From NCBI GenBank assembly GCA_947259735.1, contig CAMYNN010000001.1, positions 114,515 through 178,514 on the forward strand: a stretch of 64,000 bases of DNA, in the 5' to 3' direction. This document shows positions 1,493 to 40,341 of the stretch, piece after piece (the stretch's first letter is position 1; the number at the start of each line of letters is the position of its first letter). The translations under genes and the position numbers were made by a program. A model generated the notes under the pieces. That model was not told the DNA's origin. It saw only the letters and a list, made by a program, of their open reading frames with translations, and ran no database searches. This DNA is from Thermodesulfovibrionia bacterium (GTDB lineage Bacteria > Nitrospirota > Thermodesulfovibrionia > UBA6902).

Positions 1493-1508
1493 TGGCATTG
1501 ATTTTGCG
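1493..1508 (+). promoter_or_regulatory. sigma-54 (-24/-12) type promoter immediately upstream of flgF
   Basis: TGGCATTGATTTTGCG has GG at 1494-1495 and GC at 1506-1507, the canonical TGGCA-N6-TTGC spacing. It lies only ~12 nt before the flgF ATG at 1520. Confidence 0.4.
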
Positions 1509-10819: not shown

Positions 10820-11665
10820 ATGGGACTAGTAGTTAACACCAACCTATTCTCTCTGAATGCTCAGAGAAACGTCAAGAACACTCAGAACAGCCTGGGAAGA
10901 TCTGTAGAAAGATTATCCTCAGGTCTCAGAATCAACTCTGCAAAGGATGATGCTGCCGGAATGGCCATCTCCATGAAACTCTCCGCCCACATCAGAGGTA
11001 TTAACCAGGCTGTCAGAAACGCCCAGGACGGCATCAGTGTTGTGCAGACAGCTGAAGGCGGAATGAACGAGATCCATAATATTCTCACTCGGATGAGAGA
11101 GCTTTCAACTCAGGCAGCTACAGGCACTCTGTCAACATCTGACAGGACAGCTCTCCAGACGGAGTTTAGTGACCTCAAGACTGAAATCACGAGAATTTCC
11201 GACACGACAGAGTTTAACGGACTGAAACTTCTGGACGGAACATTGAGCGCAAATGGTGTGTCATTGCAGGTCGGAATCAACAACACTGCCAATGACAGAA
11301 TTTCTGTAAGCGGCGGTTCATTGAGAGACATCAACTCATCAGCTCTTGGACTCAGTGCTACGGTGTCAAGTATAGACACAGCATCAAATGCACAGTCGAT
11401 GCTGGCACTTGTTGACAGTGCAATCGGAACAGTGTCCACGAGGAGAGGTAATCTCGGTGCTGCTCAGAACAGGCTTGGAAGTACAATCGCCAATCTGGAA
11501 ATTACAGCTGAAAACCTTTCGGCAGCAAACTCAAGAATTAAAGATGCTGATTTCGCAACCGAAACAGCTAACCTTACGAAGAGCCAGATAATTCTTCAGG
11601 CTGGTGTTGCTGTCCTTGCACAGGCAAATGTAATGCCGCAGTATGCGTTGCAGCTCTTAGGATAG
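10820..11665 (+). CDS. fliC: Flagellin (short, D0/D1-only type, 281 aa)
   Basis: The ORF track begins at TTG 10796, but ATG 10820 follows AAGGAGGA. N-terminus MGLVVNTNLFSLNAQRNVKNTQNSLGRSVERLSSGLRINSAKDDAAG and C-terminus TKSQIILQAGVAVLAQANVMPQYALQLLG are canonical flagellin. The central region is short and Ser/Thr-rich. Confidence 0.9.
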   Translation: MGLVVNTNLFSLNAQRNVKNTQNSLGRSVERLSSGLRINSAKDDAAGMAISMKLSAHIRGINQAVRNAQDGISVVQTAEGGMNEIHNILTRMRELSTQAATGTLSTSDRTALQTEFSDLKTEITRISDTTEFNGLKLLDGTLSANGVSLQVGINNTANDRISVSGGSLRDINSSALGLSATVSSIDTASNAQSMLALVDSAIGTVSTRRGNLGAAQNRLGSTIANLEITAENLSAANSRIKDADFATETANLTKSQIILQAGVAVLAQANVMPQYALQLLG

Positions 11666-13498: not shown

Positions 13499-13891
13499 AT
13501 GGATATAAATGGTTACAAAAAGACGGTTCTTGCTAATACTGATGAAGTGCAGATTATTTTTATGCTCTATGAAGGAGCATTGAACCATTTAAAGATTGCC
13601 AGGAAGAAAATAGAAAACGGTGATGTTCTAACAAAGGGACATCATTTCTCAAAAGTAACTGCCATTATCAGTGAACTCTCTAATGTATTGGATATGGAAA
13701 AAGGGGGGGACATTTCAAAAAATCTTAGAAGCCTCTACGAGTACGTTCTGCAGCGACTCCTTTATGCAAATCTCAACAATGATATTCAGGCCCTTGAAGA
13801 TGCTCAAAAGGTTGTTCAGACAATCAGGGACGGGTGGCAGGAGATGATGCAGAAGATGAAAAATTCTGTAGAGGTCCATGCAGCAGTATAA
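13499..13891 (+). CDS. fliS: Flagellin export chaperone FliS (copy 1)
   Basis: 130 aa. The FliS four-helix signature (VQIIFMLYEGALNHLKIARKKIENGD ... NLRSLYEYVLQRLLYANLNND ... TIRDGWQEM). Confidence 0.9.
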   Translation: MDINGYKKTVLANTDEVQIIFMLYEGALNHLKIARKKIENGDVLTKGHHFSKVTAIISELSNVLDMEKGGDISKNLRSLYEYVLQRLLYANLNNDIQALEDAQKVVQTIRDGWQEMMQKMKNSVEVHAAV

Positions 13892-14093: not shown

Positions 14094-14109
14094 TGGCAAA
14101 GTAATTGCA
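14094..14109 (+). promoter_or_regulatory. sigma-54 (-24/-12) promoter upstream of the 1798-aa gene
   Basis: TGGCAAAGTAATTGCA has GG 14095-14096 and GC 14107-14108 (TGGCA-N6-TTGCA). It lies ~190 nt upstream of ATG 14301. Confidence 0.6.
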
Positions 14110-14300
14110 TTTTGATGTCAGGAATAACTTTGGAATATGAACGGGTCGGTAAGAAGGACATGCACGAGAGCATTTATAAATATAACGTGTCTTTTGCCAC
14201 AGGACATGCAGCTGGAAGGCGTACCACTCCAGCCCAGCAGGTGAGGGAATATTATTGCAAGACAGAATTGTGGCAAGAGAACGTATAAAGGGAGTAACGA

Positions 14301-17300
14301 ATGCTGACCATCATTGATCCGGAATTTATTTCAAAAGAAGAGGAGATTCTAGATGAACTGAAAAGGAATGGACTTAACCATCTCACCGGCAGTCCTGCAC
14401 TTGGCTGGAATTATGTAATAGACCATGTGTGGATCACCATGGAGATGCAGAAATTTCTTGCCGATAAGCGGGGCAGGGAGTTAGTGATCCTGGATGTGGG
14501 CTGCGGCAGATCAAAATTGCATAATTTCCTGGAAAAGAAATTCAACATCAGCATACTGGGCATTGACCGGCCTTATGGCTATTGTCATCAGAATAAAACG
14601 GACAATGTCGACTATTATGAAGACTTTCTGGAGATGAACAGTTTTGATGAAAATTCTGTTGATGCCATTTTCTGGCTTTCGGCTATTGAGCATAATGAAC
14701 CGGAAAAAATTCGTGAGCTCTATAAAAAAAGTATGGCATTACTGAAAGATGGCGGTCTGTTTCTGGCTACGTTCGCGTTGTCTGACAAGACAAGCTGGCT
14801 TGAAGCATCTCAGCAGACAAACTTAAGTATTCCTGACAGTATGGACATTTTTGATGAGAAAAGCGTTCAGCATACACTCGATGAAATAAGAGAAAAATAC
14901 AGGGCAAATGTTCTTTATTTACGTGATAAATATCAGAAAAGATATCAGAAATTCAATTGCAATGATCCTGAATTTGTTGTAGGCGGTATAAAGAAAATTA
15001 AAACTGCAACTTCTGCCGATGAAGTCCCGTGTCATGATGCACAGGAAAAGAGCCGGGACTATCTGTATTTATTTGTTCCATCAAATGATACGCACGTTCA
15101 TTTAATGAATCCAGTGGCACAAAAACTGGAGAGTGCAAAATTCATGATATTCGAGACAAGGCAGGAGAATGCAGAGTATTATCTGAATAAACTGGGACAT
15201 GAATATTTCAAGTATCAGAACGGAATCCTTCGCTCCATAAATCCTTCTGTTGTAATTTTTGCCAATGATTGGGGCCCGGAGGAAAGACAGTTAGTGAAGG
15301 AAGTGAAATCCCTTGGCATACCTACTGTATGCCTGCAGGAGGGCTGCCTGGACTTTATCGATACCAGTATTAACAGGATGATGCATGCAGATTACGCATT
15401 TATGCAGGGTCCGCTAATGAAGAAGTATATCAGACGGAGCGATAATGTCATTATTACCGGCAATCCCAAGTATGATTCAATGAACGATCTTCCTCTCCCG
15501 GATAAACCTGTGGTACTGATTAATGCGAACTTTACATACGGCATTTATGAGGATATTCGCGATCAATGGGTCGCAGATGCCGTGAGCGCATGCAGAGGAT
15601 TAAACCTTGACTTCTTTATCTCACAGCACCCGAGAGACAGGGGGGAATTCCCGGTTGATTATCATGCAGTGAGATCCGACGCCTTTAAGCTTAAGCCGCA
15701 GATTGAAAAATCATCACTCATTTTAACAAGATTCAGCACAATAATTTATGAAGCGGTAATACAGGGAAGGGGGGTTGTCTATTACAATCCTCACAAAGAG
15801 CCCTTCAGGATATTTACAGAGGATGATACGGGGGCAATAGAAATCGCCAGTTCCAGAACTGACCTCGCAGAGGCAATAAAAAAAGCACTGGAAGGCCTGG
15901 ATCATAAGAAAGAAGAGAGAGATTCTTTTATTCTCAAGCACTGCAATACAGTGGACCATGATGCATCTGAAAAGTGTGCTGAACAGTTGAGGTTAATAGC
16001 TGAAACCGACGGAAGGAGCACTGGAGATGCGAAGCAGCAGAACCTGAGAGATGACGAGGACCACGAAGTTATGGTGTCAGTAATTGTTCCAACACATAAC
16101 AGACCGGAAATGGTGGCGGATGCTGTCAAGAGTGTACTTGATCAGAAGTATAAAAATTTCGAGCTTCTTGTTGTAAATGATGCAGGGCCAGACATTGAAC
16201 CCATTATTACTTCAATGAACGGGAAAAGCAATATAACTTACGTCAGACATTCTGTAAACAGGGGGCTTGCGGCGGCCAGGAATACAGGGATTAAGCTGTC
16301 GAGAGGGAAATATATCGCTTATCTTGATGATGATGATATTTTCTATCCTGACCATCTTGAAACACTCGTACACTACCTTGAAAACAGCGATCATAAAATT
16401 GTTTATACCGATGCTCACAGAGCCCATCAGGTCAAGGAAAACGGACAGTATGTTACCCAAAAAATAGACCTTCCCTATTCACAGGATTTTGACTATGACC
16501 AGATTCTGGTATCGAACTTTGTGCCTGTCCTCTGCTTCATGCACGAAAAATCATGTCTCGATAAGACAGGATTATTTGATGAATCTCTCCCCGTTGTGGA
16601 AGACTGGGACCTTTGGATTCGTATGTCCAGGTTTTATGAAATGCCTCATATCAAAAAGGTCACTGCGGAGTTCAGGTCACGGGATGACGGTACGTCAATG
16701 ACGAGTAAAGGTATGGAAGCTTTCTATAGAACCGGTATTGCTGTACATAAAAAATATCGAGATTACGCAAAAGACAAACCCCATGTGCTGGATGCTCAGA
16801 AGCGTGCATATATGATGTATAACCTGGAAATGATATCTCATAATTCTCCCGACAAGGGAAATGATTTGAATAACAGAATCAAACTGGCAGCTACATTCAT
16901 ATCAGAATCTAAATTCTTACAGGCAATAGATGAGTATGCTGAGCTTGCAAAACAATACCCGGATATTGAAGTGTTCTACGCAGTATTATGTGACCTTTAT
17001 TCCCTGGAGGGCAGGAGTGATATCCCGGGAGAGTGGGTAACGCGTACCATCATGTTTGATCCCAGTTACTCTGACAGTTTTATTGATATGACCGCCAGGC
17101 TGATTGAAGATAAACAATATGCAGATGCGGAAAAGATTCTGACGGCTGTTGAAAAGGCCAGCACTGATAACTGTGAAGTGCTGGACACACTCAATTCACT
17201 CCGCTCAGAAATGATTGTACAGAGCGATACAAAGAATAATAAAAGAGCAACGATGAATGAAAAGTCAGCAGGACACGACATTAAGGGTATGGCATCAATC

Positions 17301-19697
17301 ATCATTCCTGTCATGAATAACCTTGAATATACGAAACAGTGTCTCGAAGCTCTCTCATTGAATACAGCATATGAACCCTACGAAGTGATTATTATTGATA
17401 ATGCCTCAACGGACGGAACAGGTGAGTTTCTGAAATGCCTTGAAGGAAATGTAAAGATTATCACGAACGGAGAGAACCTTGGCTTTGCCCGGTCCTGCAA
17501 TCAGGGGGCTATGGCTGCAGAGGGTGAATTTCTGGTCTTTCTGAATAATGACACCGTTCCTGAACCGGGCTGGCTGGATAGCATGGTGAGCGTTGCCGAC
17601 GGGAATCCGGACGTAGCAGTTGTGGGAAGTAAACTGCTCTACCCGGATGATAGGGTGCAGCACGCTGGTGTAGTATTCGGTTGTCGTGAATCAGGATTGA
17701 GCATATCCCATATATACAAGGGTATTGAAAGGGAGCATCCTGCAGTCAACTACCTCAGGGAGTTCAATGCAGTAACTGCGGCCTGCATGCTTGTAAAAAG
17801 AAATGTTTTCCTGGCACTGGACATGTTTGATGAGGGATTTTTGAACGGATATGAAGATGTTGACTTTTGTCTGAGAGTCAGAGAAAAAGGACTGAAGATT
17901 ATGTATAACCCCGAAAGCACTCTTCTCCATTATGAAGAAAGTACCGAGGGAAGGCTTGATCACGGTGAACGAAATACACTTCACTTTTTAAGTAAGTGGA
18001 AGGGGAAAATTGAACCTGATGAGGAAACGAAAGTGCATGAGGACGGATTCAGAATAGAGTACCTTCCTGATAATCGTGCCCTGATTAATTGTTCAGAGCA
18101 GCAGGATAAATGCATCAGTGAAGAGGGGAAGAAGTATGAGTACAAGAGAAGACCTGAAAATGAAGAAATATTGCCTGAAATGAAATCAGGAGAGATGAAT
18201 AAGAAGAAACTCGCTATCGTAAGAGGAGCAAATATCAATAAATGGGAAATGCAGAACTATGAACCTCTTCGTGACATGTATTCTATCACTGCCTATACAA
18301 CAGAACCGCATGTTTTCGATCTAAGCCACATTCAGTTTCCTGTGGTGAAACTCCCCTGTGAATCACAGGGTCTGCTTCTGGATATGAAAGGACTTGAAGA
18401 TCATCTTTCCGACAAGGATCTAATATATTCTGCTGATATTACATACAGGTTTTCGGAACAGGCCGTTCAGGCAAAACAGAAATACGGATGCAAGGTTGTA
18501 TGTCTTGAATGGGAAAATATTCCATTTAACTATGATCAGTATGAAGAGGTTCACCGTATAAAGAAAACGGTCCGACATGGAGCTGACCATTTCATTGCTG
18601 TTACTCAGCGTGCAAAAGAGGCACTCATGCTTGAGGGTGTTTCTGAAGCACGGATTGATGTAGTTCCAATGGGTGTGGATCTGAATGTCTTTAAGCCTGA
18701 TAAGAAGAATATTGAAAGAGACAGAGAAAAAATCGGAATTGGTAATGACGAAATAGTGGTGCTCTTTATCGGAAGGATGGTGTGGGAGAAGGGGATTTAT
18801 GACCTGATACACGCGGCGACAGGAGTTATTCGGGATGACTCTATAAAAGAACGTTTTGTACGATTTCTCATTATTGGGAAAGGCCCCGAATTAGACGGTG
18901 TTCATAAAAGGATAACAGATCTGGGGATTGGCAGCCATGTTACTTTACTGGAGGAATATCCTTATCATTATATGCACAGATTGCATAATCTTTCCGACAT
19001 ATTTGTCCTCCCAAGTATATCTACCAGAGATTGGCAGGAGCAGTTCGGAATGGTGCTCATAGAAAGCATGGCCTGCGGGAAACCTGTTATTTCAACTCGT
19101 TCAGGGTCCATCCCTGAAGTAGTGGGAGATGATGGGATATTAATTCAACCGAATGATCATCTGTCTCTGTATGGGGCCATAAAGAAACTGATTCTGGATC
19201 ATGCACTCAGAGCAGAACTCGGGGCCAGGGCATTGTCAAGAGCAAAGAAGATGTTTGATTCTCAAAGGACGGCAGAAAGAATCAGATTAATATTCGAAAA
19301 GGTTCTGAATAAGAAAACTGAGGAAGAGAGATTGAATGAAGATTTTATGAAGGGAATGCAGTTATGGAAAGAGGGGAGCAGAGTAGATGGTTTTGAGGTT
19401 CTCTGCAGGACCTTTGAAGAAGACCCTGATAGGAAGAATGTACTTGACTCAATTGTCCAGACCGGAAGGGAACTGAAACGACATGATGCTGTAGAGAACT
19501 ATATAAGAGAATACCTGCTCTATCATCCGGCTAACCTTGATGCGCTTGCGTCACTGGCGCAGACACTTATAGATACGGGAAAGATTGATCGGGCGGAAGA
19601 TGAATTGGCGAAGATTTTTATTTTTGACCGAGAACACAGACGGGCAGTTTCTCTAGTGAAGGAGATAGAGGCAGCAAGAAAGCAAGTAAAAGTCTGA
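14301..19697 (+). CDS. Giant multidomain modification enzyme: SAM-methyltransferase + TagF/KpsC-like GT-B + GT2 + TPR + GT2 + GT4 + TPR (1798 aa)
   Basis: Motifs seen are: class-I MTase motif I (VILDVGCGRSK, ~14.48-14.78 kb); a GT-B-like region (VVLINANFTYG ... FISQHPRD ... LILTRFSTIIYEAV); GT2 no. 1 (VSVIVPTHNRPEMV...YLDDDD...EDWDLWIRM, ~16.07-16.72 kb); GT2 no. 2 (ASIIIPVMNNLEYT...IIIDNASTDGT...FLNNDT...GYEDVDFCLR, ~17.29-17.95 kb); GT4 (FIGRMVWEKG...EQFGMVLIESMACGKPVISTRSGSIPEVV, ~18.2-19.2 kb); TPR-like helices in the middle and at the C-terminus. An AGGGAG RBS is present. Confidence 0.85.
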   Translation: MLTIIDPEFISKEEEILDELKRNGLNHLTGSPALGWNYVIDHVWITMEMQKFLADKRGRELVILDVGCGRSKLHNFLEKKFNISILGIDRPYGYCHQNKTDNVDYYEDFLEMNSFDENSVDAIFWLSAIEHNEPEKIRELYKKSMALLKDGGLFLATFALSDKTSWLEASQQTNLSIPDSMDIFDEKSVQHTLDEIREKYRANVLYLRDKYQKRYQKFNCNDPEFVVGGIKKIKTATSADEVPCHDAQEKSRDYLYLFVPSNDTHVHLMNPVAQKLESAKFMIFETRQENAEYYLNKLGHEYFKYQNGILRSINPSVVIFANDWGPEERQLVKEVKSLGIPTVCLQEGCLDFIDTSINRMMHADYAFMQGPLMKKYIRRSDNVIITGNPKYDSMNDLPLPDKPVVLINANFTYGIYEDIRDQWVADAVSACRGLNLDFFISQHPRDRGEFPVDYHAVRSDAFKLKPQIEKSSLILTRFSTIIYEAVIQGRGVVYYNPHKEPFRIFTEDDTGAIEIASSRTDLAEAIKKALEGLDHKKEERDSFILKHCNTVDHDASEKCAEQLRLIAETDGRSTGDAKQQNLRDDEDHEVMVSVIVPTHNRPEMVADAVKSVLDQKYKNFELLVVNDAGPDIEPIITSMNGKSNITYVRHSVNRGLAAARNTGIKLSRGKYIAYLDDDDIFYPDHLETLVHYLENSDHKIVYTDAHRAHQVKENGQYVTQKIDLPYSQDFDYDQILVSNFVPVLCFMHEKSCLDKTGLFDESLPVVEDWDLWIRMSRFYEMPHIKKVTAEFRSRDDGTSMTSKGMEAFYRTGIAVHKKYRDYAKDKPHVLDAQKRAYMMYNLEMISHNSPDKGNDLNNRIKLAATFISESKFLQAIDEYAELAKQYPDIEVFYAVLCDLYSLEGRSDIPGEWVTRTIMFDPSYSDSFIDMTARLIEDKQYADAEKILTAVEKASTDNCEVLDTLNSLRSEMIVQSDTKNNKRATMNEKSAGHDIKGMASIIIPVMNNLEYTKQCLEALSLNTAYEPYEVIIIDNASTDGTGEFLKCLEGNVKIITNGENLGFARSCNQGAMAAEGEFLVFLNNDTVPEPGWLDSMVSVADGNPDVAVVGSKLLYPDDRVQHAGVVFGCRESGLSISHIYKGIEREHPAVNYLREFNAVTAACMLVKRNVFLALDMFDEGFLNGYEDVDFCLRVREKGLKIMYNPESTLLHYEESTEGRLDHGERNTLHFLSKWKGKIEPDEETKVHEDGFRIEYLPDNRALINCSEQQDKCISEEGKKYEYKRRPENEEILPEMKSGEMNKKKLAIVRGANINKWEMQNYEPLRDMYSITAYTTEPHVFDLSHIQFPVVKLPCESQGLLLDMKGLEDHLSDKDLIYSADITYRFSEQAVQAKQKYGCKVVCLEWENIPFNYDQYEEVHRIKKTVRHGADHFIAVTQRAKEALMLEGVSEARIDVVPMGVDLNVFKPDKKNIERDREKIGIGNDEIVVLFIGRMVWEKGIYDLIHAATGVIRDDSIKERFVRFLIIGKGPELDGVHKRITDLGIGSHVTLLEEYPYHYMHRLHNLSDIFVLPSISTRDWQEQFGMVLIESMACGKPVISTRSGSIPEVVGDDGILIQPNDHLSLYGAIKKLILDHALRAELGARALSRAKKMFDSQRTAERIRLIFEKVLNKKTEEERLNEDFMKGMQLWKEGSRVDGFEVLCRTFEEDPDRKNVLDSIVQTGRELKRHDAVENYIREYLLYHPANLDALASLAQTLIDTGKIDRAEDELAKIFIFDREHRRAVSLVKEIEAARKQVKV

Positions 19698-19894: not shown

Positions 19895-19910
19895 GGGCAC
19901 AAATATTGCT
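19895..19910 (+). promoter_or_regulatory. sigma-54 type promoter upstream of the second fliS
   Basis: GGGCACAAATATTGCT has GG 19896-19897 and GC 19908-19909 at canonical spacing. It lies ~60 nt upstream of ATG 19970. A 10-bp palindrome GCACATGTGC lies just upstream (19875-19884). Confidence 0.55.
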
Positions 19911-19969: not shown

Positions 19970-20338
19970 ATGGGAGGAACAGCACTGAAACCACAGGCGG
20001 AGCAGAGGGGAACCGATGGAGTGCAGATCGTTTCAATGCTCTATGACGGTGCAATCAACTTTATCGGTAAAGCAAAAGAAAAGCTGGACATAGGCGATTC
20101 TTCCGGCAGGTCTTTATATATCAAAAAGGCAACGGATATTGTAAAAGAACTGTCGGGCTCTCTCAATATGGACACCGGAGAAATTGCCGTAAATCTCAGG
20201 AGCCTTTACGATTTTGTTCTTGACAGTCTTGCAAAGGCAGACCTGCAGAACAATCGTGACGCACTCAGTGATGCAGAGAAGGTCATTGATATCATCCGCA
20301 GTTCCTGGCAGGAGATGCAGGAAGCAGGAAAAGTATAG
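19970..20338 (+). CDS. fliS: FliS-family flagellin chaperone paralog (copy 2, 122 aa)
   Basis: The ORF track starts at 19880 but that extension covers the promoter. ATG 19970 follows GAAGGAGGGA. It aligns along its length with copy 1 (VQIVSMLYDGAINFIGKAKEKLDIGD ... NLRSLYDFVLDSLAKADLQNN ... IIRSSWQEM), at roughly 40-45% identity by eye. Confidence 0.8.
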   Translation: MGGTALKPQAEQRGTDGVQIVSMLYDGAINFIGKAKEKLDIGDSSGRSLYIKKATDIVKELSGSLNMDTGEIAVNLRSLYDFVLDSLAKADLQNNRDALSDAEKVIDIIRSSWQEMQEAGKV

Positions 20339-20664: not shown

Positions 20665-20680
20665 TGGCACAGATATTGCT
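20665..20680 (+). promoter_or_regulatory. sigma-54 promoter upstream of the MerR-GT2-CMP-sugar operon
   Basis: TGGCACAGATATTGCT is an exact TGGCAC-N5-TTGC consensus. It lies ~70 nt upstream of ATG 20752. Confidence 0.65.
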
Positions 20681-21021: not shown

Positions 21022-22003
21022 ACCGTCTGTATCAGTCATTATTCGCTGCTGCAATGAGCAGGAGCACATAGGACGTCTGCTTACAGGTATTTATGAACAG
21101 ACCCTGAACGACATTGAAGTGATAATCGTTGATTCCGGTTCCACAGACAGGACTCTGTCAATAGCTTCCTGCTTTCCCGTTATCATCAGGACAATAAGTG
21201 CGCAGGAATTTTCATTCGGTCACGCACTGAATGTGGGATGTAAAGCGGCCAATGGGAACATCATAGTATTTGCCAGCGCCCATGTATATCCGACTCACCG
21301 CCGCTGGCTGGAGACACTGATTGCGCCGTTCAATGATCCTAAAGTCGCTCTCACATATGGAAAACAGCGTGGAAATGAAATGAATAAATTTTCTGAGCAT
21401 CAAATATTTTCAAAGTGGTTCCCCGAGCATTCATTGTCCGTTCAGCGGACACCCTTTTGCAATAACGCCAATGCGGCGATTCCAAGAGATTTGTGGAAGA
21501 TTGTTCCCTATGATGAGGGATTAACGGGACTTGAAGATATCGACTGGGCAAAGCGTCTGATTGGCAAGGGATACTATTTAGCATATGCGGCAGAAGCAGA
21601 AGTAATTCATGTCCATAACGAAAGATATATGGGAACGCTTAATCGCTACTACCGTGAGTCAATTGTATTCTGTCAGCTTTTCCCCGAACAGAAATTTCGG
21701 ATGAAGGATTTTTTGTGGCTCTGGTTTATCAATACATTGAACGACTATGCACATGCATTCCGTAAGGGGAAACTGTTCGGCAATCTATTGAGCATTCCCC
21801 TGTTCAGATTAATGCAGTTCTGGGGAACATACAGAGGGTATGCGCAGAGGGACCCTGTCAGCTCCGCGCTCAGGCAAAGGTTCTATTATCCCAACGGACT
21901 GTCCAGGCCAGCGGACAATGGCAATAAACCGGATACGTCTGATAATGACTATATTGATTACATGAAAATAGAGAAAAATGAAAAAATCGAACAACCTCAT
22001 TGA
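21014..22003 (+). CDS. Glycosyltransferase family 2
   Basis: MSKPSVSVIIRCCNEQEHIGRLL...EVIIVDSGSTDRT...GLEDIDWAKR has GT-A/GT2 hallmarks. The start is taken at ATG 21014 (track 20978) to avoid a long overlap with the MerR gene. Confidence 0.8.
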   Translation: MSKPSVSVIIRCCNEQEHIGRLLTGIYEQTLNDIEVIIVDSGSTDRTLSIASCFPVIIRTISAQEFSFGHALNVGCKAANGNIIVFASAHVYPTHRRWLETLIAPFNDPKVALTYGKQRGNEMNKFSEHQIFSKWFPEHSLSVQRTPFCNNANAAIPRDLWKIVPYDEGLTGLEDIDWAKRLIGKGYYLAYAAEAEVIHVHNERYMGTLNRYYRESIVFCQLFPEQKFRMKDFLWLWFINTLNDYAHAFRKGKLFGNLLSIPLFRLMQFWGTYRGYAQRDPVSSALRQRFYYPNGLSRPADNGNKPDTSDNDYIDYMKIEKNEKIEQPH

Positions 22004-22646
22004 TATATCGGTACCTCTGGATTCAGCACTGCCTACCTGGCCGGGAAGTGAAGGGATGAAGGTGGAACGGCTTTCCTGTTTTGAAAACGGAAATGACGTG
22101 AATGTATCCAGGCTCACATGCGATGTGCATACAGGTACTCATATCGAGACGTCTCTTCATTTTCTGCCCGACGGAGAGAGTGTAAGTCAGATTCCTCTGG
22201 ATATATTGGTAGGGAATGCGTATGTCGCGTATTTGCCGGAGGCCGACATCATTACACCCGATGATCTTGAGATCCTCGAAATACCCGATGAAACAGAAAG
22301 ACTTCTGATGAAGACAGGGAACTCAAGGTTGTGGGAAGAATGGGGAGACATGTTCAGACAGGATTTTGCGGCCCTTAATTCGGATGCTGCTGAATGGATC
22401 GTTGAGAGAGGTATCAAGCTATTCGGTGTTGACTACCTTTCAGTTGAATTATACAGGGAACCGGCCTCGCGCAATCACATTACGCTTTTAAGGGGAGGGG
22501 TTGTCATACTTGAAGGGCTTAATCTATCGATGGTTAATGCGGGTATGTATGAATTAATCTGCCTTCCCATAAAACTTGTCGGTGCTGAAGGTGCGCCTGC
22601 GAGAGCGGTTTTGAGAACGAAGAGCGCGTGCTGCTGCGGTGATTAA
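21978..22646 (+). CDS. Putative cyclase / kynurenine-formamidase-like metal hydrolase
   Basis: 222 aa. Cyclase-family motif HTGTHIETSLHF (compare HxGTHxDxPxH) near the N-terminus. Overlaps the upstream GT2 by 26 nt. Confidence 0.65.
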   Translation: MKKSNNLIDISVPLDSALPTWPGSEGMKVERLSCFENGNDVNVSRLTCDVHTGTHIETSLHFLPDGESVSQIPLDILVGNAYVAYLPEADIITPDDLEILEIPDETERLLMKTGNSRLWEEWGDMFRQDFAALNSDAAEWIVERGIKLFGVDYLSVELYREPASRNHITLLRGGVVILEGLNLSMVNAGMYELICLPIKLVGAEGAPARAVLRTKSACCCGD

Positions 22647-23351
22647 ATGATGAAAAATGTGAAAAAACCAAGAATTGCTGCACTGGTTCCCATGAGACAT
22701 AACAGTGAACGGGTGCCGGGGAAGAATTATCGTCTTCTTGGGGACAGGCCTTTGTATCATCACATAATCGGAAGCCTTCTTGAATGTCCGCATATTGATG
22801 AAGTATGTATTGACACGGACAGTCCTTTTATCCTTGATGACGCGCCAAGAAATTTCCCTGTCAGGCTGATTGAACGACCTGCCCATCTGCGTTCGGGATT
22901 TGAACCCATGAACAATATTCTGCTTTACGATGTAACTGAAATAGAAGCTGACTTCTACCTGCAGACACACAGCACTAATCCGCTTCTTACAACAGAGTCC
23001 ATATCAAAGGCGATCGAGACCTTTCTGAGGCCCGGTGATCATGATTCACTCTTCGGGGTTACCCGTTTGCAGACACGCCTTTATGACAAACAGGGAAATC
23101 CCATCAATCATGATCCTGATGAATTGTTAAGAACACAGGATTTGCCCCCTGTTTTTGAGGAGAACTCAACGATATATATTTTTTCAAAAGAGATTCTCAA
23201 AGAGCGTGGAAACCGCATAGGTCAAAAACCCATAATGTTTGAAATTGACCGTGAGGAAGCGGCAGATATTGATGAAGAAATGGACTTTCTATTAGCGGAA
23301 TTTCTTTATAAAAAAACGAGAAAGGCGAAGGTGTTCAGTAATGAAATTTAA
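22647..23351 (+). CDS. Acylneuraminate-type cytidylyltransferase (CMP-sugar-acid synthetase; NeuA/PseF/PtmB-like)
   Basis: 234 aa. N-terminal ALVPMRHNSERVPGKNYRLLGDRPLYHHIIGSLL resembles the CTP_transf_3 nucleotide-binding motif. Size is typical of the family. Confidence 0.8.
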   Translation: MMKNVKKPRIAALVPMRHNSERVPGKNYRLLGDRPLYHHIIGSLLECPHIDEVCIDTDSPFILDDAPRNFPVRLIERPAHLRSGFEPMNNILLYDVTEIEADFYLQTHSTNPLLTTESISKAIETFLRPGDHDSLFGVTRLQTRLYDKQGNPINHDPDELLRTQDLPPVFEENSTIYIFSKEILKERGNRIGQKPIMFEIDREEAADIDEEMDFLLAEFLYKKTRKAKVFSNEI

Positions 23352-24297
23352 GGTACTTATAACTGCCCCGTACATGCAGCCCGTAATAAAGGAGTACATG
23401 CATTTTTTTAATGATAACGATATTGAGGTCATAGTGCCCCCGGTCAAAGAGCGTCTTTCCGAACAGGAGCTACTGGAAGTTATCGGCGATATTGACGGAG
23501 TAATTGCCGGCGACGACCAGTTTACATCAAAGGTCTTAAGGTCAGCTCCCAGACTGAAAGTGCTTTCGAAGTGGGGCACGGGCATAGACTCATTCGATCA
23601 GATAACAGCGAGAGAACTCGGCATTGCCATCCGCAATACACCGGGGGCCTTTAATGAGCCGGTGGCGGACCAGGTACTCGGATATATGCTTGCATTTGCC
23701 AGGCGCATCCCGTGGATAGATGAAAGAATGAAGGACGGTGAGTGGGAAAAGCTGAACTGTTTTTCACTTTCTAATCGTACACTGGGAGTCATCGGTACAG
23801 GGAATACAGGGAAAGCGGTTATAGAGCGTGCAAAGGCATTTCAAATGCGATTACTCGGGAATGACATTGAGGAAATGCCTTCTGAGTTTATTGATGAGTC
23901 AGGTATCCAAATGGTGGACAAAGAGGACCTGCTGCGCGCGAGTGATTTTGTCAGCCTGAACTGTGACCTTAATCCCTCAAGCTATCACATCATGGGAAGA
24001 TCTGAATTTTCACTCATGAAACGGACGGCTTACTTTATAAATGCTGCGAGAGGGCCGCTTGTCGATGAACCTGCTGTTATTAAGGCCCTGCAAAATAAAT
24101 TAATAGCCGGTGCGGCCCTTGATGTCTTTGAAGATGAGCCGCTCCCCCTTGACAGCCCATTGCGCTCAATGTCCAATGTACTCCTCTCTCCTCATAACGC
24201 GAACAGCAGTGAGGAGCACTGGATGAGAATTCATGAGTCAACAATATCGAACTTACTGGCAGAGCTGAATAAAGAACCGGTTTCAGTAGCAGGTTAA
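23341..24297 (+). CDS. D-isomer-specific 2-hydroxyacid dehydrogenase (NAD-binding)
   Basis: 318 aa. GVIGTGNTGKAV Rossmann motif and the catalytic region NAARGPLVDEPAVIKALQNKLIAGAALDVFEDEP. Confidence 0.85.
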   Translation: MKFKVLITAPYMQPVIKEYMHFFNDNDIEVIVPPVKERLSEQELLEVIGDIDGVIAGDDQFTSKVLRSAPRLKVLSKWGTGIDSFDQITARELGIAIRNTPGAFNEPVADQVLGYMLAFARRIPWIDERMKDGEWEKLNCFSLSNRTLGVIGTGNTGKAVIERAKAFQMRLLGNDIEEMPSEFIDESGIQMVDKEDLLRASDFVSLNCDLNPSSYHIMGRSEFSLMKRTAYFINAARGPLVDEPAVIKALQNKLIAGAALDVFEDEPLPLDSPLRSMSNVLLSPHNANSSEEHWMRIHESTISNLLAELNKEPVSVAG

Positions 24298-24309: not shown

Positions 24310-25047
24310 ATGAAATCAGCACTCGTAACAGGAGCTGCAGGAGGAATTGGCAAGGCGGTCTGCGAGCTTTTAGAGAGGAAAGGGTACAAGGTTATCGGTG
24401 TAGACAGCAGGGCAGCCTCTGGTCTTGATTATGAAGTAATTCAGTTTGATGTAAGCAGACTGCGGAACGGGGATTCAGAATGCAAAGAATTCTATGAAAA
24501 AGCGAAAAGTTTTGCTGATGGAAGGCTGGATGTCCTCGTAAATAATGCAGCTGTCCAGATTGTTAAATCGGTCGAGAATCTTACAACGGCAGACTGGGAC
24601 GTGACGCTTGACACGAACCTGCTTGCTCCATTCTGGCTGACACAGATGTTTTTGCCTATGCTGCGTGCGGCAAGAGGAAGTGTTGTGAATGTTTCGAGTA
24701 TCCACGCGGAGCTTACAAAAAGGGAATTTACCGCTTATTCCACAAGCAAGGGAGCTCTCCTTTCGCTGACTCGAGCGCTCGCGCTGGAACTTGCGCCCGA
24801 TGTTCGGGTGAATGCAGTACTCCCGGCAGCCACGGATACACCGATGCTGCTCGATGGATTTAAAGATAATCCAGACGGACTGAAGGAATTGGGGTCCTAT
24901 CATCCATTGGAACGAATTGCCAGTCAGGATGAGGTAGCCCGGGCTGTTTTCTTCCTGGCCAGTCCGGAAGCCAGTTTTATGACAGGGGCTTCAGTAAATG
25001 TTGATGGAGGTATAGGAGCGTGTCTGCACGACCCGGTTAAAAGGTAA
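24310..25047 (+). CDS. Short-chain dehydrogenase/reductase (PtmA-like)
   Basis: 245 aa. TGAAGGIGKA cofactor motif, NNAA, and catalytic YSTSK. Confidence 0.85.
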   Translation: MKSALVTGAAGGIGKAVCELLERKGYKVIGVDSRAASGLDYEVIQFDVSRLRNGDSECKEFYEKAKSFADGRLDVLVNNAAVQIVKSVENLTTADWDVTLDTNLLAPFWLTQMFLPMLRAARGSVVNVSSIHAELTKREFTAYSTSKGALLSLTRALALELAPDVRVNAVLPAATDTPMLLDGFKDNPDGLKELGSYHPLERIASQDEVARAVFFLASPEASFMTGASVNVDGGIGACLHDPVKR

Positions 25048-25050
25048 TAC

Positions 25051-27834
25051 ATGAGCTTTCAGTTAAAATTAGATCAATGTAGTTCAAGGCTATCTCCTTC
25101 TTCTGGAATCAGGCCCAATTTTCTCGGAATAGGGGCAGCTAAGGCGGGTACGACAACTGTCGCAAGATTGCTGGCCGGTCATCCGGAAATCAGCTTCCCG
25201 GTCAATGGGACCAAGGAGCTGCATTATTTTGATGAGAAATATGCAAAAGATGATGACGCGTGGTATTTCAGTCAGTTTGAGAATAATATTGCAATTGGAG
25301 AATACACTCCCAGCTATATCTTTGATCCCGAATGCCGCGACAGAATTTATAAAACACTGGGCGGGGACATCAAGTTTATTGTAGCGCTCAGAAATCCTGT
25401 GGACAGGGCCTTTTCACACTATTGTCATGCCGTGAATAACTGGTGGCAGGACAAATACAGAGCACTGAACTATCCTGTTGAAGGTCTGAGCTTCGAAGAT
25501 GCCATAGATAAGGAAAGTGAACGGCTTGGAGCCGGTAACTATCACATTCGGCATCTCAGTTATTTCAGCAAGGGGTTATACGCTGAGCAGCTGAAAAGGT
25601 TCTTTGAAGTATTTCCCAAAGATAATTTTTATATCTATCTATATGAAGACTACATTGCCTCACCTGCGCACATACTGAAAAATATATGCACATTTCTGGG
25701 AGTTGATGAGCATTTTGAATTTCAGGGTACTGATAAGGTTTATAACACCCAGACAAACAGGATAATGGCCCATTCAACCCGGAGGAAATTGAATGAGAGA
25801 TACGGGAATTCAATAAAGGAGCTTGAAGACCTGCTTGGCAGAGACCTCTCGGTCTGGACTGGAAAAGGGAAACGACATAGCATCGGGGCGGCTGCATACA
25901 CTCATGAAAAGGTGAATTTTTATGGCATGAGAAAAACAATGAAAGATCCCATATTTGTCGTTGGCAGTCCACGCTCAGGCACTACGCTGCTGCAATGTAT
26001 GTTAAGCGTGAGTGAAAACGCATTTTCATTGCCTGAGACCCATTATTTCTGTTCAATACTTCCCCGCCTTGGAATTCGACCGACTGACAAAATTAATCAG
26101 GATAATGTAAAAGACATAATAGATCTTTTTTATGAGAAGATGGTCCTCGATATACCTGAATATTTAATGTCTGAGTTTTTTAAAAAGGCGGAAAGCGGGC
26201 AATTAACAGCAGTTGATATTTTGATAGATATATTCGATCTTTTCCGGCCCGCTGATGATAGTGCAAGAATCCGACGGGTGATTGAAAAGACCCCTTTTCA
26301 TGTACAGTACCTCAGGGATATTGTGGAAAGTTTTCCTGATGCCAAGTTTCTAAATATAATCCGTGATCCCCGTGACGTAGTCAGTTCAAGAATGATGATG
26401 CCCATGGCGCATACAAAATCCTTCAGATTATACGCGCTGGAATGGAACAGGTCGATAGGGCAGGCCCAGCGGTTCCTTGGAGAATTCCCAGGCAGTCTTT
26501 TATCCATTCGATATGAAGACCTTGTAGAAAAGACCGGGTGCACTTTAAATGAAGTATGTCAATTCCTGAACCTGCCCTTTCGTGATGAGATGGTATCGAA
26601 ATTTGCCATGAAGTATGAATCCTGCACACTTCACAAAACAGAGAGCTGGAAGGAGGAAGTTAAAACAGGGCGGATCCGCAATAAGAGAGGGATCTGGCAG
26701 AACAGAATTACTCCTGCTACTGCATGGTTAATTGAGCAGGAAACAACAGAGCTAATGAAATTATATGAATATGCACCATCTGTCCGGCCTTCGCAATCAG
26801 AGATCAACAATGCATTGGAGAATGAGGATTTAGTATTAAAACAGGAAAGCGGCATAGACACAATTATTCAAATAGGGACGTATTATTCGGAAGAGAGGAA
26901 ACATGCATCAGCTCGTGAGATCTATGAAAATGCTATTCTTTTTGAGAATATTACTCGTCAGGACCGAAACAAGTTACTGCTCAGGATTGGAAACATTCTA
27001 TTGGACGAGGGTAGATATCATGATGCCGAAGGGAAATTTGCGAAGGCCCTGGCAATCAATGGCCTCCCGGAAATTGAGCGTTTTCACGTATTGCTTGGTT
27101 TTGGCAGAAGCTGTTTTGCCGAGAAGAAATATCATGAGGCTGAACAAAAATTTGCAGATGCCCTTTTACTTGGAGAAGTCCCTCAAAAGGAAAGGTTTAA
27201 CGCTCATCTTTTTCTTGGGAGATGTTATGCCGCTCTGAAGAGATATGTTGATGCCGAGGATCAGTACAGGGAAGCATTGTCTATGGATGTACCGAACGAG
27301 ACGAAGATAAGCACCGTACTTCACCTGGGGAAATGTTTGTCGGAGCAGGGGAAGAGTGAAGAAGAAAAACAGGAGTACTTAAGTGCCCTGTCAGAGGGCG
27401 GCATTGCAGCCATATGGAAGTACAGGTTATTGAACAGGCTCGGGATACTGGCTTTTCAATGCGGCACATATGAGAGTGCAGAAAAAAGGTATACAGAAGC
27501 ATTGTCCATAGAAGGTGTGCCCGGAACAGACAGGTATCATGCGCTTACTGGTCTTGGCAAGTGCTGCATTGCCCAAAAAAAATATGATGAGGCGGAGAAA
27601 CAGTTTGAAGAAGCCTTGTCCTGTGACACCATTTCAGCCACATCAAGAATTGCCGCGGCAGAAATGCTTGTGGACTGCTGTTTATTGCGCGGCAAGTTAA
27701 AGAAGGTAGAGCAGGTCTGCGAAATGGTAATGCTACTGGAAGGAATTGATGAGCAGCTCATGAGGAAATTTATCATACAGGTGAAGGAAAAAATTAAGAT
27801 GGTGTCCCTTCGCAGGGGAGGCTCAAATGCATGA
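25051..27834 (+). CDS. Tandem double sulfotransferase fused to a long TPR array (927 aa)
   Basis: Domain 1 has a 5'-PSB loop GAAKAGTTT and 3'-PB motif ALRNPVDRAFSHY (~25.1-25.9 kb). Domain 2 has a 5'-PSB loop GSPRSGTTLL and IIRDPRDVVSS (~25.95-26.7 kb). The C-terminal ~330 aa are repeated ~40-aa TPR-like units (…YHDAEGKFAKALAI…YHEAEQKFADALLL…YVDAEDQYREALSM…). Confidence 0.8.
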   Translation: MSFQLKLDQCSSRLSPSSGIRPNFLGIGAAKAGTTTVARLLAGHPEISFPVNGTKELHYFDEKYAKDDDAWYFSQFENNIAIGEYTPSYIFDPECRDRIYKTLGGDIKFIVALRNPVDRAFSHYCHAVNNWWQDKYRALNYPVEGLSFEDAIDKESERLGAGNYHIRHLSYFSKGLYAEQLKRFFEVFPKDNFYIYLYEDYIASPAHILKNICTFLGVDEHFEFQGTDKVYNTQTNRIMAHSTRRKLNERYGNSIKELEDLLGRDLSVWTGKGKRHSIGAAAYTHEKVNFYGMRKTMKDPIFVVGSPRSGTTLLQCMLSVSENAFSLPETHYFCSILPRLGIRPTDKINQDNVKDIIDLFYEKMVLDIPEYLMSEFFKKAESGQLTAVDILIDIFDLFRPADDSARIRRVIEKTPFHVQYLRDIVESFPDAKFLNIIRDPRDVVSSRMMMPMAHTKSFRLYALEWNRSIGQAQRFLGEFPGSLLSIRYEDLVEKTGCTLNEVCQFLNLPFRDEMVSKFAMKYESCTLHKTESWKEEVKTGRIRNKRGIWQNRITPATAWLIEQETTELMKLYEYAPSVRPSQSEINNALENEDLVLKQESGIDTIIQIGTYYSEERKHASAREIYENAILFENITRQDRNKLLLRIGNILLDEGRYHDAEGKFAKALAINGLPEIERFHVLLGFGRSCFAEKKYHEAEQKFADALLLGEVPQKERFNAHLFLGRCYAALKRYVDAEDQYREALSMDVPNETKISTVLHLGKCLSEQGKSEEEKQEYLSALSEGGIAAIWKYRLLNRLGILAFQCGTYESAEKRYTEALSIEGVPGTDRYHALTGLGKCCIAQKKYDEAEKQFEEALSCDTISATSRIAAAEMLVDCCLLRGKLKKVEQVCEMVMLLEGIDEQLMRKFIIQVKEKIKMVSLRRGGSNA

Positions 27835-34894: not shown

Positions 34895-34910
34895 TGGCAA
34901 GATAATTGCT
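34895..34910 (+). promoter_or_regulatory. sigma-54 promoter upstream of the 591-aa Maf-N/CgeB gene
   Basis: TGGCAAGATAATTGCT has GG 34896-34897 and GC 34908-34909. It lies ~55 nt upstream of ATG 34966. Confidence 0.6.
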
Positions 34911-34965
34911 TTATACCATGCGTGGATAATTTTATGACGGGATTGCTGTTTCCTTGAAAGATACA

Positions 34966-39735: not shown

Positions 39736-40341
39736 ATGTCTGATGAAAAAAAGGAAAAGACGGCAGAGCAGGAGAAGAGAAACTTCTTCAGGGTAGACGA
39801 TATTATTTCTGTAGTAGCAAGCCCTGTGCAAATTGACGAGAAAAGCTTTCAGGGTTTTGCTGAAACAGCTATGAGCTCAAAGGCATTTTCTCTTATGGAT
39901 GTTACAGGTATATCGGAGCCGGTTCCTGATGAGATTGTTTCGGAACCTCAGGACAATTCAAGACTCTACAGAATGATGACGGAAATAAAAACCAAACTCG
40001 ACTTTATCATTAATCATATAATGCTCGAAAAAGAAGGGCTGCTGGAGCCCGAAAAGAAATTTGTCAATATCAGCGCTTCAGGAATCCGATTTACTGTGGA
40101 CCACCCCGTCAAAGAGGGCGATATTATGGAGATCAAACTCCTCCTGCCTACCTATCCGCCTGTGGCTGTTTTTGCATACGGCGAAGTAAAGAGGGTAATT
40201 GATCTGCCGGATAATCAATATGATGTTGCCATTGAATACATTAACATGGAGGATTCCGTGAGAAATGAGATTGTGAAGTACACCATGTCTCATCAAAGGG
40301 AAACAATCAGAAAGCGGAAAGAAGCGGGATCGAATGAATAA
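39736..40341 (+). CDS. PilZ-domain (c-di-GMP receptor) protein with a long insertion between the two binding motifs
   Basis: RNFFR (RxxxR) occurs near residue 15 and NISASG (D/NxSxxG) near residue 121, which is ~100 aa apart rather than the usual 20-30. The stop overlaps the motA ATG (ATGAATAA). Confidence 0.7.
   Translation: MSDEKKEKTAEQEKRNFFRVDDIISVVASPVQIDEKSFQGFAETAMSSKAFSLMDVTGISEPVPDEIVSEPQDNSRLYRMMTEIKTKLDFIINHIMLEKEGLLEPEKKFVNISASGIRFTVDHPVKEGDIMEIKLLLPTYPPVAVFAYGEVKRVIDLPDNQYDVAIEYINMEDSVRNEIVKYTMSHQRETIRKRKEAGSNE

Follow-up and report, generated by a model that had tools for sequence, protein, structure and literature searches.

The gene studied here is located in a stretch of 64,000 nucleotides (hereafter, the window) of contig CAMYNN010000001.1, positions 114,515 to 178,514, from a Thermodesulfovibrionia bacterium. 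Analysis of the window revealed a single open reading frame (ORF) on the forward strand (14301..19697) that starts with ATG, comprises 1798 codons with zero internal stops and is preceded by a good ribosome-binding site, as a first-pass annotation of the same DNA had proposed. The encoded protein of 1798 amino acids contains, in this order, an S-adenosylmethionine (SAM) methyltransferase, a domain of the glycosyltransferase (GT) fold GT-B without Pfam family, a GT2 domain, a tetratricopeptide repeat (TPR)-like block, another GT2 domain, a GT4 domain and a C-terminal TPR block. The gene marks the beginning of a ~25-kb flagellin glycosylation island and was found, as annotated, directly after fliS. 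The corresponding features are the following:

13499..13891, forward strand: fliS, flagellin export chaperone gene (PF02561, 125.9 bits), with a 409-nt spacer to the 1798-codon ORF
14288..14294, forward strand: ribosome-binding site AAGGGAG, 6 nt 5' of the ATG, read from the sequence
14301..15005, forward strand, residues 1-235: class I SAM-dependent methyltransferase, with motif I VILDVGCG at residue 62
15063..16025, forward strand, residues 255-575: GT-B-fold domain, here termed mid, of an unclassified TagF-related family
16068..16730, forward strand, residues 590-810: first GT2 domain (GT-A), GT2a, matching PF00535 and PF10111, with DDDD at 676 and EDWD at 767
16848..17267, forward strand, residues 850-989: central TPR-like block, with about three repeats at 850-953 and then a long helix at 958-989
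17289..17990, forward strand, residues 997-1230: second, different GT2 domain, GT2b, matching PF13641 and PF00535, with NNDT at 1082 and YEDVD at 1184
18213..19310, forward strand, residues 1305-1670: GT4 domain (retaining GT-B), identified by Pfam, with the EX7E motif (EQFGMVLIE) at 1580-1588
19353..19670, forward strand, residues 1685-1790: C-terminal TPR block, matching PF14559 (TPR_19) at residues 1726-1786 with 33.9 bits (cut-off 25)

The chance of finding 1798 stop-free codons at the GC content of the window (~42%) is about 1e-48 by arithmetic. Since the sequence comes from metagenome-assembled contigs, an artefact of assembly or annotation, for instance sequences joined into a chimera or a frameshift that went unnoticed, had to be considered. 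However, two contigs, of 56 kb and 179.5 kb, encoded the identical protein, and a third contig (174 kb) carried a strain variant with 1788 of 1798 residues identical in a gap-free alignment (99.4%). In addition, six contigs, derived from at least two samples, carry P0002, an ortholog of 2105 amino acids with 61% identity that is collinear with the 1798-aa protein across residues 1-1293 and 1300-1794. The identity between both proteins was similar for all domains (62-72%), and the GC content was uniform across the gene. With these observations against it, the probability of an artefact is practically negligible, and the 1798-codon ORF is confirmed as a real gene and not an assembly chimera. Regarding the nature of the product, no 19-residue window in a Kyte-Doolittle analysis exceeded a value of 1.33, so the protein is plausibly soluble.

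Five of the domains carry intact catalytic signatures, the GT2 domains being of the inverting type and the GT4 domain of the retaining type. All the motifs quoted in the first-pass annotation were present at the positions listed above, and its description of five catalytic-type domains plus two helical-repeat blocks in one soluble polypeptide beside fliS was supported by domain mapping with hidden Markov models, which gave Pfam matches above cut-off for the methyltransferase, both GT2 domains, the GT4 domain and the C-terminal TPR block. The N-terminal domain matched PF13649 (Methyltransf_25; 35.9 bits, cut-off 27, residues 63-152) and PF08241 (32.1 bits, cut-off 21.2), with both models together extending over residues 63-155. 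The PF00535 model gave 211.8 bits in total over two stretches, residues 593-809 and about 999-1216. Among the PDB relatives of GT2a are PglI (E 2e-25) and the chondroitin polymerase K4CP (E 2e-20). The presumed metal-binding motif of GT2b is an NND variant (residues 1082-1084), and this domain showed MftF-like and rhamnosyltransferase-like matches in NCBIfam, every one under its cut-off. The GT4 domain was matched over residues 1339-1644 by PF13439 (33 bits), PF00534 (134 bits) and PF13692 (100.6 bits), and its PDB relatives include MshA, BshA, PimB and sucrose-phosphate-synthase-like proteins.

The repeat blocks were recognized at different levels of confidence. In the central block, the Pfam TPR model scored 16.6 bits (cut-off 25; E 0.01) across 24 residues. 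An AlphaFold2 (AF2) model of residues 805-1000, built on an alignment of 2 sequences, showed a mean pLDDT of 72, with values of 80-92 over residues ~855-975, and TPR proteins accounted for 50/50 top PDB matches of this model in Foldseek (best E 2e-3). The model thus gives moderate support to the TPR-like helices that the first reading of the sequence had suggested. The TPR domain of Maf-1 is known to bind flagellin, and the FliS/FliT-like protein GlfM bridges Maf-2 to flagellin (bioRxiv 10.1101/2023.12.03.569772; PMC7591256). Because of this binding by the Maf-1 TPR, the C-terminal TPR block can be regarded as a candidate module for binding flagellin or a partner. No Maf domain (PF01973, MptE-like/DUF115) was found by Pfam in the 1798-aa protein; such a domain is present in the product of the neighbouring gene at 28848-30956 (60.2 bits).

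The mid domain reached no Pfam cut-off, with 16.3 bits against PF04464 (cut-off 22.1), and a direct sequence search of the PDB with this domain alone returned nothing below E 0.1. A homology search identified 132 relatives, mostly stand-alone "hypothetical proteins" of 420-480 aa without Pfam domain, and the best match in the genome collection, from Planctomycetota metagenome-assembled genomes, had only 55% identity. When the full library of 1.84 billion was searched with the profile, ~580 representatives matched at E <= 1e-30, so the mid family is small and unclassified. The AF2 model of the domain, based on an alignment of 105 relatives, predicted a two-Rossmann GT-B fold with high confidence (pLDDT 91.6, pTM 0.88). 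This model gave 182 PDB matches at E <= 1e-3, with GT-B-fold enzymes representing 50/50 of those listed, and Foldseek matches to 2-epimerases, GT1, TagF and TarL ranged from E 3e-12 to 6e-10. At the sequence level, 47/105 family members matched PF04464 at E <= 0.01 (the strongest at 3.5e-10), and the family profile matched TarL with E 8.8e-5, a match confined to the C-terminal, donor-binding half. No sequence match was obtained with the domain or the family profile against sialyltransferase or Kdo transferase chains in the PDB, and the TagF family is the sole relative of the mid domain detected by sequence. These data support the assignment of mid as a GT-B domain distantly related to TagF. 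The first-pass description of a TagF/KpsC-like GT-B region therefore holds for the fold and for a distant TagF kinship, but the domain remains under the PF04464 cut-off.

Several residues were invariant in the 105-member alignment, both in the N-terminal half (D323 W324, E347 in the Q-E-G motif, and G387 N388) and in the C-terminal half of the domain (N408, N410 F411, W423, H443, R445, S459, R477, S479, E484, N496 P497 and E500). H443 sits in the sequence S-Q-H-P-R-D, with the H443-P444 pair invariant. In the N-half motif Q346-E347-G348, the E is invariant and the Q is present in at least 90% of members. The invariant acidic residues of the N-terminal half together with H-P resemble the motif pattern of the TagB-like CMP-nonulosonate transferases of Tannerella forsythia. 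In this bacterium, the TagB-like proteins Tanf_01245 / TFUB4_00887 are needed for the terminal pseudaminic/legionaminic acid (Pse/Leg) derivative, CMP-activated, on the protein O-glycan (PMC5420450). The motifs of bacterial sialyltransferases are given as D/E-D/E-G in the N-terminal half and HP in the C-terminal half in the description attributed there to Freiberger et al. (cited in PMC5420450). The Tannerella TagB-like enzymes show D/E-D/E-G and HP, whereas the mid family shows Q-E-G, and not D/E-D/E-G, together with HP. Likened in this way by described motifs, the Tannerella enzymes appear to be the best precedent for the function of mid, which may by this comparison transfer a CMP-activated acid.

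A potential source of such a donor is encoded 3' of the gene, where four genes form a cassette:

21978-22646, forward strand: cyclase-family hydrolase (Pfam/NCBIfam)
22647-23351, forward strand: NeuA-like cytidylyltransferase (Pfam/NCBIfam; PF02348)
23341-24297, forward strand: D-2-hydroxyacid dehydrogenase (Pfam/NCBIfam)
24310-25047, forward strand: short-chain dehydrogenase/reductase (SDR; Pfam/NCBIfam)

When every ORF lying up to 10 kb from a mid-family gene was clustered for 81 loci, the cytidylyltransferase emerged as the commonest neighbour of the family (50/81 loci, in many phyla), followed by the 2-hydroxyacid dehydrogenase (39), the SDR (23) and the cyclase (18). Rarer neighbours were a HAD hydrolase (14 loci) and an HpcH aldolase (10 loci). 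The order cytidylyltransferase-dehydrogenase-SDR is identical in the window, in Mucilaginibacter and in the cyanobacterium Rippkaea orientalis PCC 8801. The nearest PDB relatives of the cytidylyltransferase are CMP-Neu5Ac synthetases (E 4e-13), with KdsB more distant. Its identity to the cyanobacterial counterpart is 65%, and at E <= 1e-20 the enzyme has >8000 homologs, every one generically named. No nonulosonate synthase was found among the 25 commonest neighbour clusters of mid genes (most of them annotated, some by eye); in this absence of a synthase among the frequent neighbours of most mid-family genes, the system differs from that of Tannerella. Literature searches on this four-gene cassette yielded no paper that describes it. 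From these gene associations, the cassette presumably provides mid with a CMP-activated donor, which may be a 2-keto-aldonic acid in CMP-linked form. The loci that contain the cassette include L002, L005, L050, L087, L088 and ~45 others.

The kinship with TagF raises the alternative that mid is a true TagF-type phosphotransferase, which would use a CDP-linked donor to transfer a polyol- or hydroxyacid-phosphate and form a phosphodiester, with the methyltransferase then modifying the substituent. The sequence relationships described above favour this alternative, as the TagF family provides the only sequence relatives (PF04464 in 47/105 members; TarL in the donor-binding half) and both TagF and TarL are among the structural matches. 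There are also known systems of this kind: Clostridioides difficile flagellin carries phospho-N-methylthreonine, and strain 630 pairs the methyltransferase CD0243 with the glycerophosphotransferase-like CD0244 (PMC4441256), while TagF-like capsule polymerases are fused to GT-A/GT-B modules and TPRs (PMC5974469). On the contrary, the 1798-aa protein itself scores under the PF04464 cut-off, and the N-terminal half of mid shows no conserved residue corresponding to one of the two TagF catalytic histidines. Furthermore, the linked cytidylyltransferase is of the NeuA/KdsB type (PF02348), near CMP-Neu5Ac synthetases. Enzymes of this type make CMP-ulosonates and are not known to make CDP-alcohols. 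Altogether, we consider a phosphotransferase unlikely.

A second alternative is that mid works in biosynthesis, delivering substrate to the cassette as a NeuC/PseG-like 2-epimerase or nucleotide-sugar hydrolase, in which case only three domains of the protein would add sugars. UDP-GlcNAc 2-epimerases are the top structural matches of the model (E 3e-12, TM 0.6-0.67), mid co-occurs with a sugar-acid activation cassette, and the invariant D/E of the N-terminal half and His of the C-terminal half appear to resemble the epimerase active-site pattern. Membership in Epimerase_2 (PF02350) was nevertheless rejected, as the model was matched by 0/105 family members even at E 0.01. In addition, mid is repeatedly fused to transferase modules and not to cassette enzymes, and the cassette mostly occurs without the mid family (>8000 cytidylyltransferase homologs vs ~580 mid representatives, and the PCC 8801 locus), so mid is no obligatory biosynthetic step. 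For these reasons we regard an epimerase or hydrolase role as very improbable. A 417-aa protein encoded beside the PCC 8801 cassette was also evaluated as a possible member of the mid family and was rejected (hhalign probability 0.2%); it is weakly MptE/Maf-like.

The genetic context of the gene is flagellar. The upstream genes encode a sigma factor, flgF/G/A/H/I, flgN, flgK, flgL, fliW, flagellin, flaG, fliD and fliS, a gene set which indicates that the host is a diderm flagellate. Gene content in fact identifies the host as a predicted diderm by the presence of flgH/flgI, kdsA/kdsD, fliW and sigma-54-type flagellar promoters, with 43% GC. Downstream of the 1798-codon gene the order is fliS2, a MerR-like gene, a GT2 gene, the cyclase, the cytidylyltransferase, the dehydrogenase and the SDR, and then a sulfotransferase-TPR gene; the island continues with GT2, Maf-TPR, 1205-aa protein, 591-aa protein and GT9 genes, and is followed by motility and housekeeping genes. 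The genes of this region that bear on flagellin modification are the following:

10820..11665, forward strand: flagellin, 281 aa from Met9, with Flagellin_N and Flagellin_C; presumed acceptor
19970..20338, forward strand: fliS2 (PF02561, 97.3 bits), 46% identical to fliS and directly 3' of the large gene
25051-27834, forward strand: sulfotransferase-TPR protein of 927 aa, in which two sulfotransferase stretches are combined with a long TPR region (Pfam)
27827-28951, forward strand: GT2 (Pfam)
28848-30956, forward strand: Maf/MptE-like-TPR protein (Pfam), with TTG as the listed start
30997-34614, forward strand: multi-module protein of 1205 aa, with two GT2 stretches, Maf_N, DUF3880 and Glyco_trans_1_2
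34954-36729, forward strand: 591-aa protein with Maf_N, DUF3880 and Glyco_trans_1_2, a paralog of the C-terminal part of the 1205-aa protein

The flagellin is the sole one in the window and consists essentially of D0/D1, with a variable segment of ~60 residues that contains 28% Ser/Thr; a large glycan may substitute for its missing outer domains. By analogy with GlfM, fliS2 may encode an adaptor that presents flagellin to the transferases. The 927-aa sulfotransferase-TPR protein hints at a sulfated flagellin glycan, as far as can be predicted from its domains. The Maf-type proteins of the island are those encoded at 28848-30956, 30997-34614 and 34954-36729. In the first of them, translation probably begins further 3' than the listed TTG, since from this codon the ORF would share ~100 nt with the GT2 gene before it.

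The organization of the P0002 locus (10001-16318 of L002) is the same in its main lines, with the order fliS - large gene - fliS2 - GT2 - cyclase - cytidylyltransferase - dehydrogenase - SDR, and the position of fliS2 3' of the large gene is kept. This locus also contains a third, weak FliS-like ORF. P0002 has six catalytic-type domains in 2105 aa, and the catalytic motifs of the 1798-aa protein are also kept in its sequence. It carries an insert between GT2b and GT4 that contains a MetW-like methyltransferase and a TPR stretch. Because the insert falls there, the junction at residues ~1260-1300 can be considered a site of module gain or loss, and the additional methyltransferase and TPR show that module content shifts even among close relatives.

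The distribution of the modules was further analyzed in 243 mid-family proteins, where the domains of the 1798-aa protein were found separately and in other fusions; this is the Rosetta-stone check that the first-pass annotation had suggested. Stand-alone proteins accounted for 208/243. The methyltransferase was located directly N-terminal to mid in 13/243, with the order never reversed, a GT2 was directly C-terminal to mid in ~19/243, and fusions to Maf-like domains were observed in 15/243. Homologs of the sulfotransferase modules of the 927-aa protein are fused with Maf, GT2 and mid in P0014 and P0017, whose layout is Maf-GT2-sulfotransferase-sulfotransferase-GT2-mid-GT2. Island genes that are separate here are therefore fused elsewhere, which by Rosetta-stone logic places them in one pathway. 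Other permutations include Maf-mid-GT2, GT2-mid-GT2 and mid-Maf-GT2-Maf-GT2, and methyltransferase-mid and mid-GT2 are the only conserved adjacencies among relatives. The complete order methyltransferase-mid-GT2-GT2-GT4-TPR was found only in the 1798-aa protein, its strain variant and P0002.

These results qualify two statements made initially on this gene. The fusion had been described as rare, and this holds for the exact architecture but not for the kind of protein, since ~25 relatives of 1000-2800 aa are made of these same modules and glycan enzymes with 3-4 catalytic modules have been characterized, namely WbbB, K. pneumoniae O7 ORF6 and TPR-containing capsule polymerases of the TagF-like type. 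What is new is an unusually high module count for a multi-module glycan enzyme of a flagellin island; the kind is already known. The fusion had also been taken to imply an assembly-line order of reactions on one substrate. This was unsupported: the modules are permuted among relatives and P0002 has an insert with an extra methyltransferase, so the linear order of domains is no evidence of the order of reactions.

The settings in which relatives are encoded bear on the identity of the acceptor. According to a third alternative, the protein would act on a lipid-linked or surface glycan of O-antigen, capsule or sheath type and would be merely co-located or co-regulated with the flagellar genes. 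Most mid-family genes are in fact found in polysaccharide loci with Wzx, Wzy or Wzm/Wzt, including those of P0006, within a Wzx-type polysaccharide locus, and of P0013 (10001-13285 of L004), whose locus contains Wzm/Wzt and rmlABCD. In P0013 the methyltransferase-mid pair is followed by a weak GT2-like region, a coiled coil and a basic amphipathic tail, a layout that is, by analogy, that of a WbdD-type O-antigen chain terminator. Within our window, a GT9 heptosyltransferase-like gene lies inside the island, and kdsA, kdsD and a gene for a KdsC-like HAD hydrolase are located 10 kb 3' of it. Against this alternative, no flippase, polymerase, ABC exporter or priming transferase was found among the scanned listed ORFs of at least 100 aa in the 64-kb window. 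Moreover, the bracketing by fliS and fliS2 is kept at 61% protein identity in another organism, flagellin glycosylation systems are typified by Maf-like genes, TPR modules and a FliS-like adaptor, and P0003 and P0011 are likewise encoded beside fliD and flhB/fliPQR, with an identical type of four-gene cassette directly adjoining them. A non-flagellin acceptor is accordingly considered decidedly unlikely.

The 1798-aa protein resembles two groups of characterized enzymes. In the polymerase-terminators, Klebsiella pneumoniae O7 ORF6 combines a methyltransferase-kinase, a coiled coil and two GT2 domains, O12 WbbB combines a Kdo-transferase terminator with two GTs, and Escherichia coli O9a WbdD/WbdA likewise belongs to this class (PMC11231755). 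In the coiled-coil terminators, a long ruler separates the terminator from the polymerase or the membrane, and the carbohydrate-binding module of Wzm/Wzt reads the cap (PMC11231755). Like these enzymes, the 1798-aa protein is large and soluble and has an N-terminal methyltransferase module, helical spacers and several GTs, and a homologous methyltransferase-mid pair occurs in P0013 together with a coiled coil and basic tail in a Wzm/Wzt and rml locus. Unlike them, it lacks a membrane-anchoring tail, its second domain is a TagF-related GT-B in place of a kinase or of a Kdo transferase of GT99/GT137, sequence searches gave no match to the PDB chains of WbdD or WbbB, scans of the window showed no ABC transporter or Wzt carbohydrate-binding module, and the presumed acceptor is flagellin and not an undecaprenyl-linked glycan. 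A related arrangement exists in WsaE, an enzyme of S-layer glycan synthesis in Geobacillus stearothermophilus with an N-terminal O-methyltransferase and two GT2 rhamnosyltransferases that extends and methyl-caps the glycan. The substrate of WsaE is lipid-linked, the glycan being later moved to the S-layer protein, and WsaE is not known to contain a TagF-like or GT4 module.

The TagF-like capsule polymerases (CslB, Cps1B, Cps7D and others) join a TagF-type GT-B domain to GT-A/GT-B modules and TPRs, with domains that are independently active (PMC5974469). They are defined by two catalytic histidines, one per Rossmann half (H444/H584 in TagF; H612/H743 in Cps7D; PMC5974469). The 1798-aa protein likewise joins a TagF-related GT-B, GT-A/GT-B modules and TPR. 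The capsule polymerases, however, draw on CDP-glycerol or hexose-phosphate as donors for the synthesis of capsule and possess both histidines along with the five TagF motifs, whereas mid is under the PF04464 cut-off, has no conserved N-half His and is linked to a NeuA-type cytidylyltransferase. The 1798-aa protein thus resembles polymerase-terminators and TagF-like capsule polymerases but fails their membership criteria, and its closest analogues appear to be WbbB, K. pneumoniae O7 ORF6 and the TagF-like capsule polymerases.

Among flagellin glycosylation systems, the protein is like Maf-1 in being a transferase of a flagellar locus with a C-terminal TPR, and like maf-2/GlfM in that a FliS/FliT-like four-helix protein is encoded adjacent to it. 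It differs from Maf-1, Maf-2 and FlmG in the lack of a Maf (PF01973) or FlmG domain and in having five catalytic modules instead of one, and fliS2 differs from GlfM (89 residues) in being a full FliS paralog (97.3 bits to PF02561). The type A flagellin genes CD0240-CD0244 of C. difficile 630, which include a GT, the methyltransferase CD0243 and the glycerophosphotransferase-like CD0244, elaborate the flagellin glycan (PMC4441256); there the functions are in separate small genes, vs a single polypeptide here.

With a confidence just above even, we favour as a whole the mechanism in which the 1798-aa protein is a soluble cytoplasmic enzyme that extends and caps a flagellin glycan. Flagellin would be kept unfolded by FliS/FliS2 and recognized via the TPR block, a step proposed by analogy with the flagellin binding of the Maf-1 TPR and with GlfM, the link between Maf-2 and flagellin. 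Priming would occur by O-glycosylation of Ser/Thr in the short variable region, probably by the Maf-TPR protein (28848-30956), and the next sugars would be added by the GT2a, GT2b and GT4 modules. The mid GT-B domain would then add the CMP-activated acid made by the cassette, and the N-terminal methyltransferase would methylate the added acid residue or its neighbour. The D-2-hydroxyacid dehydrogenase of the cassette is compatible with the methylation target suggested initially, a sugar or a glycerate-type substituent, without proving it. The methyltransferase-mid pair would in this way act as a capping or terminating module, as in O-antigen polymerase-terminators, and the completed glycoprotein would leave via the flagellar type III system. 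The analogy with terminators, for which O7 ORF6 and WbbB are the precedents, is favoured by the layout of P0013 and by seven mid-family loci that contain a Wzt bearing a weak Wzt_C match.

Several observations weigh against this mechanism. The acceptor, the donors and the order of reactions are all inferred. The best structural matches of mid are UDP-GlcNAc 2-epimerases, which are not transferases, its PF04464 score is below the cut-off, and no His is conserved in the N-terminal half of the family as judged from alignment columns. The analogy with terminators is incomplete because the model of residues 805-1000 contains no long coiled-coil ruler, about three TPRs and one helix of ~30 residues being what separates GT2a and GT2b. 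The pairing of mid and cassette is not exclusive, since the distribution of the cassette greatly exceeds that of the mid family, and in R. orientalis PCC 8801 it lies beside a weak Maf-like protein instead of mid. Finally, a flagellar setting was found in 1/80 genome loci holding a mid-family gene, which span Planctomycetota, Chloroflexota, Sumerlaeota, Bacteroidota, Proteobacteria and others, so the default setting of the mid module is polysaccharide synthesis and not flagellin modification.

The sole flagellar locus among these 80 is L058 of Alteromonas arenosi ASW11-36 (NZ_JAUCBP010000006.1), where the mid gene is near flagellin/flgL. As a named strain, ASW11-36 could serve as an experimental model.

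A broader proposal, which we put forward tentatively and with rather less than an even chance of being correct in full, is that the methyltransferase-mid pair and the four-gene cassette constitute an uncharacterized, phylum-spanning glycan-capping system. In one example of a route, the cassette would convert an aldose through lactone, aldonate and 2-keto-aldonate into a CMP-ulosonate without aldolase or synthase. The acid would be transferred by a new GT-B glycosyltransferase family and the product then methylated, and the large flagellar enzyme would represent an O-antigen-type polymerase-terminator re-targeted from a lipid carrier to cytoplasmic flagellin. The pairing of the cassette with the mid family is the part of these results most deserving of follow-up: an unclassified GT-B family (~580 representatives) is tied to a widespread unnamed cassette, from Bacteroidota to cyanobacteria, and once the donor and its transferase are identified, they would provide an additional sugar-activation pathway and, probably, a further CAZy family.

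Flagellin glycans influence filament assembly, motility and immune recognition, and little is known on how complex flagellin chains are built before export beyond a few pathogens. In this context, the 1798-codon gene offers a compact test bed, in a single polypeptide, for ordered extension and capping of a glycan on a protein acceptor, and links flagellin glycosylation to the module logic of O-antigen polymerase-terminators. If its domains merely transfer ordinary hexoses, the protein would be a large member of a familiar class.

Regarding expression, analysis of the region upstream of the gene revealed an exact match to the sigma-54-type -24/-12 pattern TGGCA-N6-TTGCW. Three exact matches were found in the window vs 0.40 expected, a number that 0/100 shuffles reached, and all three are intergenic and on the forward strand. 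The exact and one-mismatch sites are the following:

1493-1508, forward strand: one-mismatch site, intergenic, ahead of flgF
14094..14109, forward strand: exact promoter-like site (TGGCAAAGTAATTGCA), 192 nt 5' of the start codon of the 1798-codon gene
19895-19910, forward strand: one-mismatch site, intergenic, ahead of fliS2
20665-20680, forward strand: exact site, ahead of the MerR/GT2 operon
34895-34910, forward strand: exact site, ahead of the 591-aa Maf_N gene

From this pattern, the 1798-codon gene appears to be transcribed from its own sigma-54-type promoter. Scans for sigma-70 promoters and intrinsic terminators around the gene showed no enrichment over shuffles, and the sole match of the Rfam and tRNA scans of the window was a tRNA-Leu (45654-45739). 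Among the motility genes that follow the island, two motAB stator pairs are present on opposite strands (40334-41922, forward; 43029-44998, reverse), with genes for a response regulator, a PilZ protein and a PAS histidine kinase located just upstream of and between both pairs.

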